A stretch of 64,000 nt of DNA. Source: Spizellomyces punctatus DAOM BR117. Lineage: Eukaryota. The DNA lies in the NCBI GenBank assembly GCA_000182565.2, contig KQ257456.1. The stretch is one strand, 5' to 3'. Below are positions 1-4,200 of this stretch, piece after piece; position 1 is the first letter of the stretch; every line of letters starts with the position of its first letter. The position numbers and the translations under genes were made by a program. The notes under the pieces were generated by a model that saw nothing but the letters and a program-made list of their open reading frames with translations, ran no database searches and was not told the DNA's origin.

Positions 1-183
1 CACTGCTTTCTAGTTTTCAACTTCTGGCCTCTTCAGTGTGCTTCCCATTCAGCCATATGAACTGTGTCAATCCCGCAACCACTGTATATTTTTTTCCAGC
101 TTTCACCATGTTGAGAGATTGCGAGTACATGTCTTTTTGCTCGACCAGCACTATGCTCGACTGGAGCCATTTGCGAAAGCGCC

Positions 184-482
184 AAAATGATAGTCTTGAA
201 TTTACATTGTTTTTTTGGAGGTCCAGTCCACCAGACCAAGACTAGAGAGGAATCGAACCTCTATGGTACGATCCAGGTCCTCCCTCCGCCCGAAGGCATC
301 ATCGGGTATAGCAGCCGCCCCAACCAACGCGACTGCAGTCCATGCAACCACCCACTCAGGCCCTCCCTCCGCCCGAAGGCCTCATTGGGTATATCCCCTC
401 AACCCGAAGGCATCATTGGGCATATAGCAGCTGCCCCACGCCATCGCAGCCCACAGTCCATCTCAACCACTTGCGGGGGAAC
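184..482 (-). ncRNA. Putative Pol III-transcribed structured RNA (or SINE-like unit) with three K-turn/UUCG hairpins and a tRNA-like T-arm
   Basis: Minus strand: TATAAAAA (512-505); A-box-like TGGTTGAGATGG (469-458); three 25-nt CCC-RAU-GA-N-GCC-UUCG-GGY-N-GA-GGG hairpins (420-396, 389-365, 306-282); B-box GGTTCGATTCC (259-249) within the stem-loop AGAGG-TTCGATT-CCTCT; a further hairpin (237-220), an A7 run, and the first T4 at 187-184. Transcript ends are inferred. Confidence 0.6.
275..470. repeat. Imperfect direct repeats: three 25-bp cores, two of them in longer ~75-bp modules
   Basis: ccctc..cccgaaggc.tcat.ggg at 282, 365 and 396. Modules 282-351 and 396-470 also share tatagcagc.gcccc...cagtccat..caaccac. 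Confidence 0.9.
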
Positions 483-1255
483 GGGGGGACGAGGGAAGGG
501 TGCCTTTTTATAACCGAGCGCGACTGCGCGTTGTGGCTGGGGAATGCCACGTAAGCTGGTCTGATGATCTTCTAGCCCCTTGAAAGTAGGACCAATCGTC
601 GTGGATTTGTAGAAGCACGTTCTACCCCTAGCTTCCCCTTGACGCGCTCGTTCTTCCGCAAGATCCCGTTAAATCCCGATATGATGATGAACCTTCTCGA
701 CTGGACGCCGTCACCAGCAGCTGGACATGGTCAAGACGACATTGAAGCATTGAAGGCCCGTCCATATTTCTGCATTGGCTGCTGTTGATCTGTGCAATAA
801 CGGTGGTCGTGTTCCGCCAAAGCGATAATCTTCAAAAAGGTAATATCCATGGTTGACACCCATCTCCACCAAATGACTCCTCTTTTGGGGGATAGACCTC
901 AATGAACTTTGCACATGGGCTTTGCCGATGTAAAGGCTGTAGATGATCTATAGTTCGCTCAATACTTGGTTCAATCTACTCAACTGCTAGTCAGGTTGAC
1001 TGTGGAAACGTAGACTTTTTGCGAAACCAAACAGCAGAGTCTAATTCACATATGCTGTTCTTCTTCTTGCCAGCCACAAGTTACTGCTGCTACAGGGGGA
1101 CATTTTAGGAAGCATCTGTTACTGCATTGCTGGAATGGTGAACAAAATAGTGGAAAGCGCACACACCATGATTGATTCGTAAGCTCTTAGTAAGCGACAA
1201 GTCCGATCAGCGCTATGCAATTGAAATTATCCTGGGGATGACTGATCACTGATCT

Positions 1256-4200
1256 ATGCCTATGATGTCTGAACAACTGGCAGATACGGCTGGACAAGAT
1301 GTTGAAGCTGATGTCCCCGCAGATGGAACTTTACCTGAACCCACGCTGGAAGCGGAGGAGCCCACAAATGCAGCCCTTATGACTGAACCCATCGAGAGCT
1401 CTGCAGTTGAACCCACGGGTGACGCTATTGGAAGTTTACCTGAACCTATACCGGACGCAGACCAGCCCACAGATTCAACAATAACGAGTGAGCCCATCGA
1501 AGCCTCCGAAGTTCAACCCACGGATGAACCTATTGGAACCTTACCAGAACCGACACGGGAAGCTGAACAGCTCACAAACGCAACCCTTGACACCGAATCC
1601 GTCGCAAACTCAGAAGTTCAACCCACTGATGAACCTATTGGAACTTTGCCAGAACCAATACCGGAAGCAGACCCGTCCACAAATACGACCCTGATGACTG
1701 AACCCGTCGAGGCTTCCGACGTTCGACCCGAGAGTGAAGATGTTAAAACTTCACTAGAACCGACGATGGAAGGAGAGCAACCCACAATTACGACAAGCAT
1801 GACTGAACGTGCCAAGAACTCAGAAACTCCTGTTAATAGAGACGTTGGAACGCCGATTGGAGCAACTGTCATGGAAGTCACAGAGATGGAGCAGATGAAC
1901 ATTGGGGTCGTGCAGGAAGAGCATGTGATGGAGGTCACCGCGGTTGAGCAGATGAATATTGGGGTTCTGCAGGAAGAGCAAATGCTAGAAACTGGAGAGA
2001 TACTAGACCCAATGGCAGACTCGCTGCAGGCTATTGATGTCCCGGAGCCTGGAATCAGCGAGCCTGTACTTCCGGATGACGTAGCTGCTTCATCCCTTCC
2101 TGCGGCACCTGATGAAGTTACCGAGGCGGAAATCGGTAGGTATTTTGAAGTAGAAGCGACATATCTTGTTCTTTCTAAATCCTCTTTGCAATCAGATGAT
2201 CTTTTTGCCAGAACGGGCCTTCACACCCGACTCGATGAATGGCATCAAAAACGCTATTACGGAGGATATCGAGACCGGCGAAGTGAAGTCGAGTATTTCC
2301 ATGCCGAGACACAAACACCAACACCACAAGAGATCAGAGCTAGGGTGAGAATACATCACTTGCACCCGGACTCTATGAGATGGCATTCCTTATCCTACAC
2401 TCCTGTAGAATGCCCCTCTAAAGTTCCACAGAGATACCCAAACCAAATTCCTGCGCAACCGGCGTACTCAGTCCACTCGAGAATCTGCGACACAAATGGT
2501 AATTATTGTCTCGCACCCCTGCAAATTGTTTAGGTACTTATCCTTGCCCGACATAATAGACCAAACCAGGCTGCTATGTCTCCGTCGAAAACGACCACAT
2601 TCTCAGACCAAGGCGCTACATTTCGGCCGACGAGCATGATGCATGGATAATATCAAACGTGATAAAATTGCAGTGCTGGGTCCGTCGAGTGAAGGCCTGC
2701 AGACGGGTGGCACGATTGCGAAAAGAGCGGGACGAGCGGACACAGGCCATGATGGAGGTCTGTTGATATCGGGACCATGACGGCAACATTGTAGGCGTCC
2801 TTACTAACTTATGGTATTGATTCCAGAAAGAACGAAGACGCAAGGAATTAGCTGAAAAACGAAGACGAAAAGAAATTGAAAGTCGCTTGCATCCAAAGAC
2901 GACAAAAGATTTCGAAATATTGTACAATGGGCTCGAGAGTACGTCATAATAACGAAGCACTCGAAATGCGTCCGTTGATATCGTACTAACAACTATTTGA
3001 CAATCATAGGCTGGCGTCAGCAAGAAACACTAAAGATCAACAAAGCTGGCTATTCAGAACCCGCTCGCCTTGCTGCTCTGGCAGATCTTTTGGATCAAGA
3101 AGCAGCACTCATCCAAAAGATTGATCGCTTAAAGATTGCCGCAAATGAAGAAAACAGAGAGCGAAAGATAGTGCGGCTACTGGAGGCGGTTAGTTAGCCG
3201 ATGGAAAGAGTTTTACGCTATTTTGGTTCACTTAGACGGTACATTTCCAGATGTCTTCCTCCAAAAAATGGATGGTAGAAAAGGTCGGCATCGTATCCGT
3301 CGATACTCCCAACACCATTCGTGCTCGCGAGTTACGGGATCTCTACCACGCGCTGAATGTGCCTCTTGTGTCGGTCGACGAGAGGTTGCAGATATTGTTA
3401 CATGTCAAGTACACGGTCAAGGTATGGCTCTATGTTGGCAGTTCATACCAGTTTCCTCTAATGACCGTAAATTCCAGGAATTTGACTGCAATTTGACAAG
3501 AGAGATTGTGGAGCTCATTGACCGAGAAGGAGATTTGGTCAGTCGTGGTCGGGATGCCAAGACTATGGAAGGTAAATGAACATTGACACCATCGTGCAGT
3601 TCGGGATTCGCCAACAATTCCATAAATTCAGGGCTCCGAAAGCGAATTAGCAATCTATTTTTGCAATTCATTCAGACGCCAGAGTTTAATCCAGAGGCGG
3701 GCTTATACCAAAAGGTATTTTCAATCCCCTTCATCTTTTCCATTTCCTCTCGCTGATATACGTCGTTGCAAAACAGTTCCCTGACGCAGGCCAATCCTGG
3801 AAGCGAGATCAAGCCGTCTACTACTGTCGAAGCTGCACACGCTACCTACCTTCCACAGCATTCTACCTTTCAACCACTATGAAACACCTGGGCAAATGTA
3901 AAACATGCACAACGGAAGAGAACTTGGCGACATCGCGAAAGGATGACTCTATTTACTCGGACTTGTTAAAACTTATTCGCCTACAAGAACTTCAACGAAG
4001 AGCTTCATCAGGGGTACCAACAGATGCGCACTACAATGCAATATCCCTTCTTCAGGAATCCGATATGCGATACCTAGTGGATCGGGTTTGGAATCGTCAG
4101 AGCGCAGTTAGCGGGAGCAGGGCATTGGAGAGTCTCGTCCTCACAAGATGGAATCCCAATGTTGAGTTGAGCCCATGGAATTGCATTTTGCTGACAAAAG

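Follow-up and report, generated by a model that had tools for sequence, protein, structure and literature searches.

Kink-turns are familiar as single architectural or protein-binding elements within larger RNAs, including rRNA, U4, snoRNAs, riboswitches and some mRNA leaders. U4 snRNA carries one of the form GCC-AAU-GA...GA-GGC; the consensus of box C is RUGAUGA and that of box D is CUGA. By the standard definition, a 3-nt bulge is followed by G.A and A.G pairs (PMC5061560), and the kink-turn of the U4 5' stem-loop is assigned to a protein-dependent class (PMC4382518). Mouse tiny SNORDs are 20-50 nt long, and the preprint reporting them puts the spacing between boxes needed for guiding at ~12 nt (10.64898/2026.07.28.740266). 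SNORD86 cSPA is reported as a precedent for sequestering snoRNP proteins (PMC11028025).

Here we describe a locus at positions 184-512 of a 64-kb stretch of Spizellomyces punctatus DNA (the window). Our analysis supports a real, abundant non-coding RNA that carries an array of kink-turn hairpins. Among the papers that literature searches brought up, none had a title or abstract on a kink-turn array or sponge RNA, and a search with the hairpin letters matched only an unrelated primer.

Three hairpins and a repeated module

A sequence-only reading of this DNA had proposed three 25-nt kink-turn units, and scanning the window with the pattern CCCRATGAKGCCTTCGGGYKGAGGG (up to three mismatches) recovered exactly these: K1 at 420-396, K2 at 389-365 and K3 at 306-282. 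Re-reading the coordinates against the sequence gave the same result. All three matches lie on the minus strand, they are the only ones in the window, and 0 of 100 dinucleotide shuffles contained a match. Each hairpin consists of a CCC/GGG helix, a 3-nt bulge ending in U, tandem G.A/A.G pairs and a 3-bp stem closed by a cUUCGg loop. At the level of sequence, K1, K2 and K3 all show the helix, bulge, G.A/A.G pairs and second helix of a standard kink-turn, in agreement with that reading, together with a bulge-adjoining C-G pair and a U at L3 (3/3 hairpins). They probably adopt the kink-turn fold.

The hairpins differ from one another in 4 of 25 columns: L1 (A/A/G in K1/K2/K3), 3b (U/G/U), 4n (U/C/C, exchanging G.U for G-C) and 3n (U/G/G). 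The 3b.3n pair is U.U in K1, which also has G.U at 4b.4n, G.G in K2 and U.G in K3. No change affects the CCC/GGG helix, the UUCG loop or any of the four G.A/A.G letters, as the sequence-only reading had stated.

K1-K3 are mutual duplicates, arising from a 31-nt unit and a 75-nt module; being copies of one another, they do not represent three independent events. The 75-nt module at 470-396 shares 80% identity with its counterpart at 351-282. Upstream of K1, the first module (421-470, minus strand) comprises GUGGUUGAGAUGGACUG, stem-loop SL-A1 (451-429; 6 pairs and an 11-nt G/U-rich loop) and the linker GCUAUAUG. The corresponding part of the second module (307-351, minus strand) comprises GUGGUUGCAUGGACUG, SL-A2 (335-312; 7 pairs) and the linker CUAUA, and K2 is preceded by its own linker, GAUAUA (395-390). 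The SL-A stem stays paired in both modules: at one position the two partners have changed together (U-A to C-G), and at two others only one partner has. The window holds no further copy of the hairpin or the module.

Transcription and sister copies

We examined expression using public RNA reads of the same species from a single run (X7), of which ~6 in 100 were sampled. Among the runs examined only X7 showed the RNA; X8 and X9 placed no reads here, which we do not take as evidence. Of the 6534 X7 reads placed at the locus, 6528 are first mates, all on the minus strand, and 4791 of the 6534 align at identity of at least 99%. Depth reaches 3950 over 401-440, 2003 over 441-480 and 503-621 over 281-400, against no more than 4 in the flank at 520-1200. 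The predicted minus-strand transcript thus exists and is abundant, with one-strand depth of 500-3950 over 281-480. A coding-potential check of the RNA strand found stops in all three minus-strand frames and no ORF. We are highly confident that the minus strand is the RNA strand: reads leaving at 275 run into an A run, the sharp depth edge falls, on that strand, downstream of TATAAAAA, and beyond 460 no A run occurs on the plus strand.

At the upstream edge, depth rises from 0.57 (481-520) to 2003 (441-480). An octamer scan placed a TATA box, TATAAAAA, at 512-505 on the minus strand, 42-53 nt upstream of this edge; five octamers of this type occur in the 64 kb on both strands, compared with a shuffle mean of 1.99. 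The box also stands 24-37 nt before two C runs, C6 at 488-483 and C5 at 479-475, which matches the position of a Pol III-type TATA box (~-30). The C-rich stretch they form (475-488, minus strand) is the likely start region. In 2574 reads the fit ends at 459-462 and is followed by 9-10 extra letters, namely a C run plus ~4 letters on the RNA strand. We infer that these are 5' ends of sister copies that lack ~8-20 nt found here. Adapter sequence is the alternative; no adapter considered fits the orientation of the loose letters.

Depth falls towards the 3' side, from 516 (281-320) to 141 (241-280) and 35 (201-240). The part common to the abundant copies ends with AGGACC (276-281, minus strand); loose read ends and a joint that goes back both fall at 275/276, and 36 reads exit there, at 275, into ...AGUGGGGU and an A run. 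Transcription of the locus itself continues on the same strand at depths of 35.9 (161-200), 21-22 (81-160) and 13 (41-80), reaching at least ~position 40, and the window stops at position 1. The expected size of ~270-300 nt was not borne out, given a common part ending at 276 and a locus transcript extending to at least ~position 40. An encoded A7 run follows UCC at 216-210 (minus strand); it may be an internal oligo-dT priming site, which would explain how a small RNA came to be in this library.

The sequence-only reading had also attributed the RNA to Pol III, for which the evidence is mixed. A tRNA T-arm-like hairpin, AGAGG-UUCGAUU-CCUCU, at 246-262 (minus strand) holds an exact B-box consensus, GGTTCGATTCC, at 259-249, the one exact match in the window where 0.12 were expected. 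The hairpin lies outside the common part, so either this locus alone or only a sub-family carries it. From 470 down to 1, the RNA strand has a single run of four or more T, UUUU at 187-184. Depth drops across it from 35.9 to 21-22, and the ~60% that persists beyond suggests that transcripts do not end there efficiently, although molecules ending in U may have escaped detection in a library that probably favours RNAs containing A. Reads that pass the sole T4 and the 36 reads that leave at 275 into an A run lend Pol III no support, and the TATA box together with the exact B-box-like sequence keeps it a candidate.

Most X7 reads derive from other copies in which hairpin units and 75-nt modules are differently arranged: 5989 of the 6534 fit only in part. 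Hairpin-after-hairpin joints through UAUA linkers were seen at 390>364, 390>281 and 420>281 (4 reads each), and a module-after-module joint, going back 195, at 470>276 (21 reads, 9 starts). Among DNA contigs from run X1, one lacks 372-402, a single 31-nt unit, and 273-362 is present in a second version as well. We considered circular RNA as a source of the 470>276 joint and judged it less likely than tandem DNA modules, on the grounds that a similar module-after-hairpin junction occurs at 273 in an X1 DNA contig and that the RNA joint has one extra letter.

Reads from these copies reveal where the hairpins vary. K1, at depth ~3950, has no variant at 10% or more. K2 varies at 3b (G>U, 237/541) and 5b (C>U, 185/542, keeping a U.G pair), and K3 at L1 (G>A, 105/494), L3 (U>C, 71/492) and 3n (G>U, 73/485). 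The L3 change would weaken the pocket contact expected for 15.5K. Variants in SL-A2 at 327 and 323 fall in the loop, and one at 313 (42/409 reads) breaks an A-U pair. Counting genomic copies and read variants of at least 10%, all six variable hairpin sites are at L1, L3, 3b or 3n or are G.U-keeping changes, and none touches the G.A/A.G letters, the C helix or the UUCG loop. With 21-33 of the 75 possible single changes compatible, we estimate the chance of this at ~0.0005-0.007, an optimistic figure since transitions are favoured. The read variants mostly repeat the differences among K1-K3 and are thus not independent of the first observation.

A proposed guide-less protein-binding RNA and its rivals

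The explanation we consider best, at a likelihood slightly short of even, is a small gene family encoding a guide-less, box C/D-like RNA that would load several Snu13-type proteins. Locus 184-512 would be one member of this family of independently transcribed, TATA-driven non-coding RNA genes. Every module would carry a short unpaired head (GUGGUUG..AUGGACUG), a stem of 6-7 bp closed by a G/U-rich loop, and at least one 25-nt hairpin. The hairpins would represent minimal box C/D-type kink-turns, joined by (A)UAUA linkers and differing in number between copies. K1 and K3 match boxes C and D at 6/7 and 3/4 letters, K2 at 5/7 and 3/4, each on a 3-bp CCC/GGG stem. The 6-8 nt between the boxes lie entirely in the 3-bp stem and tetraloop, which leaves no room for a guide, and no antisense stretch of at least 10 nt lies upstream of D/D' in K1-K3. 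Lacking guide space, the hairpins are most likely pure protein-binding sites.

Each hairpin is predicted to bind one L7Ae-family protein, for which Snu13/15.5K is the most plausible candidate in a eukaryote; partners of the Nop56/58 type might then join it. As a whole, the RNA could serve as a multivalent platform for holding, buffering or localising Snu13-type proteins; we infer both partner and role. The scaffold or sponge role put forward earlier is compatible with everything seen. More specifically, this might be an abundant free-standing RNA whose only conserved functional part is the guide-less array of variable copy number, offering Snu13 and the machinery of box C/D or tri-snRNP assembly a titratable reservoir, a chaperone platform or a condensate scaffold; we regard this as possible but doubtful. 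If so, it would be a cellular counterpart of the L7Ae/kink-turn arrays of synthetic biology and a dosage device for an essential protein common to the spliceosome and snoRNPs. Confirmation would make the balance of Snu13 among U4, U3 and box C/D assembly directly testable. It would also show how snoRNA-like genes could arise from minimal C/D hairpins, an idea raised for mammals in the tiny SNORD preprint (10.64898/2026.07.28.740266).

Alternatively, the hairpins may act in cis on a longer transcript, either as a 5' kink-turn RNP that protects or regulates that transcript, which may be polyadenylated, as in SPA and sno-lncRNAs, or as a protein-sensing leader before a short ORF at 170-33, in the manner of L7Ae-, L30- or NOP56-type feedback. 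We consider this unlikely. A same-strand transcript does pass 276 and T4 (depth 35 at 161-240, 21-22 at 81-160 and 13 at 41-80), an AUG in good context lies at 170-168, and precedents are reported in the SNORD86 sensor and cSPA and SPA1/2 (PMC11028025) and in archaeal L7Ae leaders (PMC5539422). However, the ORF is just 45 codons long, terminates within the window and matches nothing in Pfam at E up to 10. Abundant copies leave the common sequence at 276 and meet an A run after 8 nt, so that most molecules appear short; variable hairpin number and tandem modules are not a known feature of such leaders.

To a similar degree improbable is an expressed, recently duplicated minisatellite-like repeat, in which the kink-turn pattern is a by-product and conservation stems from duplication or gene conversion; if the hairpins bind nothing, the locus is simply a highly expressed repeat. 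K1-K3 are indeed copies of one unit, and recent origin would account for their invariant UUCG loops just as selection would. Loosely defined kink-turn-like hairpins are about as frequent as in random sequence: a generic scan counted 10 in the window, K1-K3 among them, and 50 mononucleotide shuffles averaged 10.18 (maximum 18). Hairpins of this kind not being rare, what we rely on is their clustering, a helix made entirely of G-C pairs, the cUUCGg loop, the way the copies vary, and expression. The folding check proposed in the sequence-only reading gave no signal: nearest-neighbour energies were no better than those of shuffles (z = -0.29 for 184-500 and -0.49 to +0.56 for single hairpins), as expected of energy rules that give sheared G.A pairs no score.

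Homologues, whose absence from metagenome scans also favours a repeat, were sought with strict and relaxed patterns. The strict hairpin pattern found 0 loci and the relaxed one 17, each with one hairpin in unrelated context. By eye, these were mostly GC-rich and bacterial-looking, and two (L003 and L014) resemble large-subunit rRNA. A further locus, L013, matches K3 at 23/25 letters, yet its flanks do not align and we rejected it as a homologue. With none found outside Spizellomyces punctatus in these scans, independent covariation is lacking, and every variant seen is from sister copies, between which sequence may be exchanged. Against the repeat stand an RNA depth 100-1000x that of the flanks and a TATA box at promoter distance. 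Hairpins are also 88-92% identical between copies, compared with 37/50 aligned columns (74%) for the rest of the module, and all six variable hairpin sites are tolerated, at the optimistic chance estimate of ~0.0005-0.007.

Far less probable is a known kink-turn RNA, whether an orphan box C/D RNA, a U3-like snoRNA or a U4-derived gene, that has diverged strongly in this lineage and escapes the Rfam models. Fungal snRNA and snoRNA genes have independent TATA promoters and high abundance, as here; K1 and K3 match RUGAUGA at 6/7 and CUGA at 3/4, and K2 carries AAUGAGG, which may correspond to the form in the U4 5' stem-loop. The earlier statement that the RNA matches none of U3, U4, SRP, RNase P/MRP or tRNA was nevertheless upheld. 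Rfam gave no match at gathering level across the whole 64 kb and none to its snoRNA, U3, U4, SRP and RNase P/MRP models. At E up to 10, nothing matched on 1-1500, and on 180-520 (341 nt, 4227 families) only a chance PreQ1 match appeared. ARAGORN in default and intron modes found no tRNA; a 93-nt 'tRNA-?' at 238-330, obtained with -ps90, was rejected for its 4-letter anticodon and poor acceptor stem. Guide space and a second C'/D' pair are absent, the sole AUUUUGG (188-182) lies outside the common part, which has no Sm-type site, and three equivalent hairpins in variable number fit none of those families.

Least probable of all is the SINE-like retroposon family with a kink-turn body suggested earlier: several copies with different 3' flanks (at least 170 different loose ends), A runs after the body (A7 at 216-210, and one 8 nt past 275 in a sister copy) and a nearby B-box consensus suit it, but summed DNA contig depth from X1, one low-coverage run, is 2-7 over the repeat against ~3 in the flanks (~1-2x). 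The B-box is found on the 3' side of the body, beyond the common part, there is no tRNA or tRNA-like head, and the TATA box, which stands at promoter distance, would not travel with a retroposed copy. The 64 kb hold no other copy, and no target-site duplication was seen by eye.

Comparison with known systems

In the layout of yeast U6 (SNR6), a Pol III gene, a TATA box at -30 is combined with a downstream B box. The present locus is similar: it has an upstream TATA box and, ~200 nt downstream, an exact B-box consensus in the same orientation. It differs in that no T run comes ahead of the B box, that reads continue through T4, and that the B-box part is missing from the abundant copies. In SECIS elements helix II is long (at least ~12 bp) and an A-rich motif sits at the apex, beyond the G.A quartet, whereas these hairpins have a 3-bp stem and a UUCG loop.

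The hairpins resemble the U4 5' stem-loop, a 15.5K/Snu13 site, in their helix, AAU bulge, G.A/A.G pairs, short stem and small loop. Unlike U4, the locus has no Rfam U4 match and no Sm-like site in the common part (276-470), and the 3b.3n pair is U.U, G.G or U.G rather than Watson-Crick. G at 3n is reported to permit ion-induced folding (PMC4382518), by which rule K2 and K3 could fold without protein. Archaeal L7Ae-bound leaders likewise use stand-alone kink-turn hairpins as protein-sensing sites, a candidate function here, although they are described as single hairpins in 5' UTRs (PMC5539422) and no convincing coding gene follows this array.

Mouse tiny SNORDs, as their preprint presents them (10.64898/2026.07.28.740266), share with K1-K3 the C-like AUGAUGc, D-like uUGA/cGGA, short terminal helix and Snu13-type kink-turn, as well as very small size and a spacer too short for guiding. 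Here, by contrast, a 3-bp stem capped by a UUCG loop takes up the whole spacer, and there is no antisense element. Tiny SNORDs are also single, intron-derived and of low abundance, whereas these hairpins form variable-number arrays in one abundant, promoter-driven RNA. SnoRNA-ended lncRNAs (SPA, sno-lncRNA and SNORD86 cSPA) use kink-turn RNPs, as proposed here, as stabilising ends and protein traps, including for snoRNP core proteins, and have an A-tailed 3' end (PMC11028025). Those are described as complete snoRNAs from mammalian Pol II host transcripts (PMC11028025); the present RNA has tandem guide-less mini hairpins and its own TATA promoter, in a microbial eukaryote. Considered together with the sister copies, an abundant RNA built largely of repeated guide-less kink-turn hairpins in variable number would be unlike the single-element kink-turns known from larger RNAs.

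Transcription and layout of a hairpin-array RNA

Reading of the minus-strand sequence places a TATA-type box, TATAAAAA, at 512–505; octamers of this type number only five in the window. A C-rich stretch follows 24–37 nt past this box (C6 at 488–483, C5 at 479–475). Module 1 (470–421) runs from the head GUGGUUGAGAUGGACUG through a stem-loop (451–429; 6 bp, 11-nt G/U-rich loop) and the linker GCUAUAUG to the first of three 25-nt hairpins, K1 (420–396), after which GAUAUA links to K2 (389–365) and AGGGCCUGAGUGG follows. Module 2 (351–307) shares the module 1 head, has a 7-bp stem (335–312) and the linker CUAUA, and leads into K3 (306–282) and AGGACC (281–276). The locus-specific part then comprises a tRNA T-arm-like hairpin (262–246) containing an exact B-box consensus (259–249), an 18-nt hairpin (237–220), UCC plus A7 (216–210) and UUUU (187–184). 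Internal duplication is evident between the 75-nt unit 470–396 and 351–282 (80% identity) and between the 37-nt stretches 310–274 and 393–357 (92%), and no further similar sequence was found elsewhere in the 64-kb window. The 3′ half of K2 with its linker (361–374, minus) reads GGGCGGAGGGAGGG, in which four G tracts are visible by eye and could form a G-quadruplex rivalling K2.

A sequence-only reading had predicted a minus-strand transcript, and one exists in X7, a public RNA run under the same species label. With about 6 in 100 of the run aligned as raw reads to 1–1200, 6,534 reads matched (4,791 at ≥99% identity), of which 6,528 were first mates, all on the minus strand. Depth was 4 or less at 521–1200 and 0.57 at 481–520, rose to 2003 at 441–480 and 3950 at 401–440, and then fell to 503–621 (281–400), 141 (241–280), 35–36 (161–240), 21–22 (81–160) and 13 (41–80). 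Minus is very probably the RNA strand, because 36 reads leave position 275 into AGUGGGGU and then an A run, the sharp depth edge lies just downstream of the minus-strand TATA-type box, and the plus strand lacks any A run beyond 460 to account for capture. The present locus is itself transcribed, its unique 3′ part (depth 35–140) contributing a minor share of the total.

Across the hairpin array, none of the three minus-strand frames is open. Antisense to the RNA, a 108-codon ORF (187–513, plus), in which the hairpin repeats yield reiterated 'PEGIIG' peptides, is probably no gene since all reads fall on the opposite strand. Downstream of the RNA lies a 45-codon ORF (33–170, minus; MAPV...) with same-strand depth of 13–36; it gave no Pfam hit up to E = 10. 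A 425-codon ORF (1256–2533, plus) that has no Pfam match codes for a repetitive, acidic peptide rich in Pro/Thr/Glu (EPT..., TEPIE...) and contains a 72-nt direct repeat (1324–1500; 75% identity, spacing 105).

Sister copies of the RNA

The RNA is a family of copies rather than a single gene, and the number of units varies between copies. Most matching X7 reads (5,989 of 6,534) fit the window only in part. At 459–462, 2,574 reads cease to fit and continue for 9–10 letters, on the RNA strand a C run plus about four letters. We take these to be 5′ ends from sister copies with stronger expression, adapter letters being the alternative, and read the sister copies as carrying immediately before AUGGACUG the C run that here follows the TATA box. 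Other reads join hairpin to hairpin via UAUA linkers (390>364, 390>281 and 420>281; 4 reads each). The joint 470>276, which sets module 1 after K3 with one extra letter (21 reads, 9 starts), goes back along the sequence as a circular RNA might; we judge this less likely than tandem modules in DNA, given that contigs from X1, a DNA run, include a copy without one 31-nt unit (372–402) and a second version of 273–362 that shows 5 differences and 2 gaps and has a module-like junction at 273. Summed X1 depth is 2–7 over the repeat versus about 3 in the flanks, which in this one low-coverage run suggests a small family; this depth, together with a B box 3′ of the body, tells against a high-copy SINE, a SINE family having been offered as an alternative.

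Support for the kink-turn pattern

According to PMC5061560, a standard kink-turn consists of a helix, a 3-nt bulge, tandem G·A and A·G pairs and a second helix, a definition that K1, K2 and K3 all satisfy at the sequence level. Each reads CCC / 3-nt bulge / GA / N / GCC-UUCG-GGY / N / GA / GGG, with bulges AAU, AAU and GAU, and the pattern proposed beforehand has exactly 3 matches in the window and 0 in 100 shuffles, confirming the places of the hairpins. Set against the consensus motifs, K1 and K3 have 6/7 box C and 3/4 box D letters.

A single hairpin of this kind is weak evidence: a loose kink-turn scan found 10 in the window versus a mean of 10.18 in shuffles, and nearest-neighbour folding revealed no excess stability. 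The case instead comes from three copies in a row, an all-G-C helix with a cUUCGg loop, hairpin conservation and variation at tolerated places. Hairpins are 88–92% identical between copies, versus 37/50 aligned columns for the remaining module. The genomic copies vary at bulge position L1, at 3b and 3n, and at 4n (G-C versus G·U). Among read variants at 10% or more, L3 U>C (71/492 reads) and 5b C>U (185/542, U·G pair kept) are added and the others repeat L1, 3b and 3n. In neither set is a change seen in the CCC/GGG helix, the loop or the G·A/A·G letters. The model tolerates only 21–33 of the 75 single changes that are possible, so finding all six variable sites tolerated would be a chance event of ~0.0005–0.007; this rough estimate errs on the optimistic side, given the relatedness of the copies and the bias towards transitions. 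Between modules 1 and 2 the upstream stem stays paired through a U-A to C-G double change and two further changes that each affect one side; in reads, 3/4 variable positions lie in its loop and a variant at 313 (42/409 reads) disrupts a pair. An RNA family with a kink-turn array is of real interest, although the evidence for it comes from a single organism and a single RNA run.

Known classes, polymerase and possible role

The claim that the RNA matches no known family was borne out in Rfam, with no family at the gathering score (window) or at E up to 10 (1–1500 and 180–520); 180–520 alone gave a sole match, PreQ1, at 12.5 bits versus a threshold of 39. No tRNA or tmRNA was found, also with introns allowed, and a sub-threshold tRNA-like call at 238–330 is not credible. 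A SECIS element is rejected because the stem here has only 3 bp, and a box C/D guide RNA on the 6–8 nt between boxes, all paired, where guiding needs about 12 nt according to 10.64898/2026.07.28.740266. Two metagenome scans found no relative. On a GC-rich, bacterial-looking contig (L013), a hairpin at 10–34 (minus) shares 23/25 letters with K3; a TTTTATACC motif sits about 95 nt upstream of it, and the start of a divergently oriented ORF is adjacent. This hairpin could belong to an unrelated kink-turn leader of bacteria. The relaxed pattern also occurs at 2776–2800 (plus) of L003 and 491–515 (plus) of L014, near-identical contigs, inside sequence that by eye resembles large-subunit rRNA, indicating that it occurs in rRNA too.

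We lean towards Pol II. The proposed Pol III transcription draws support from a TATA box at promoter distance, the T4 and the exact B box about 200 nt downstream (1 match in the window versus 0.12 expected), a layout reminiscent of the yeast U6 gene, with its upstream TATA and downstream B box. However, about 60% of depth carries on past T4, ends have A runs and the B-box part is not among the sequence shared with the abundant copies. The interpretation first proposed is supported in part: a kink-turn-array RNA outside known families stands, while Pol III, the size and the SINE alternative are doubtful or unsupported.

At the sequence level the hairpins offer all that a Snu13/15.5K site requires and none of the features of a guide, and an abundant RNA carries them in varying numbers. 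Multivalent loading of an L7Ae-family protein is the mechanism that would be most economical, this RNA serving as a putative platform or buffer. The G/U-rich loops and conserved AUGGACUG heads may conceivably add a further role, for instance base pairing or the binding of another protein. K1 has U·U at 3b·3n, as in box C/D. K2 and K3 have 3n = G, which according to PMC4382518 permits folding in metal ions alone, and so could fold in this way, whereas the archaeal box C/D kink-turn described there needs protein to fold. In one precedent, the SNORD86 cSPA, snoRNP core proteins are sequestered on a snoRNA-ended RNA (PMC11028025).
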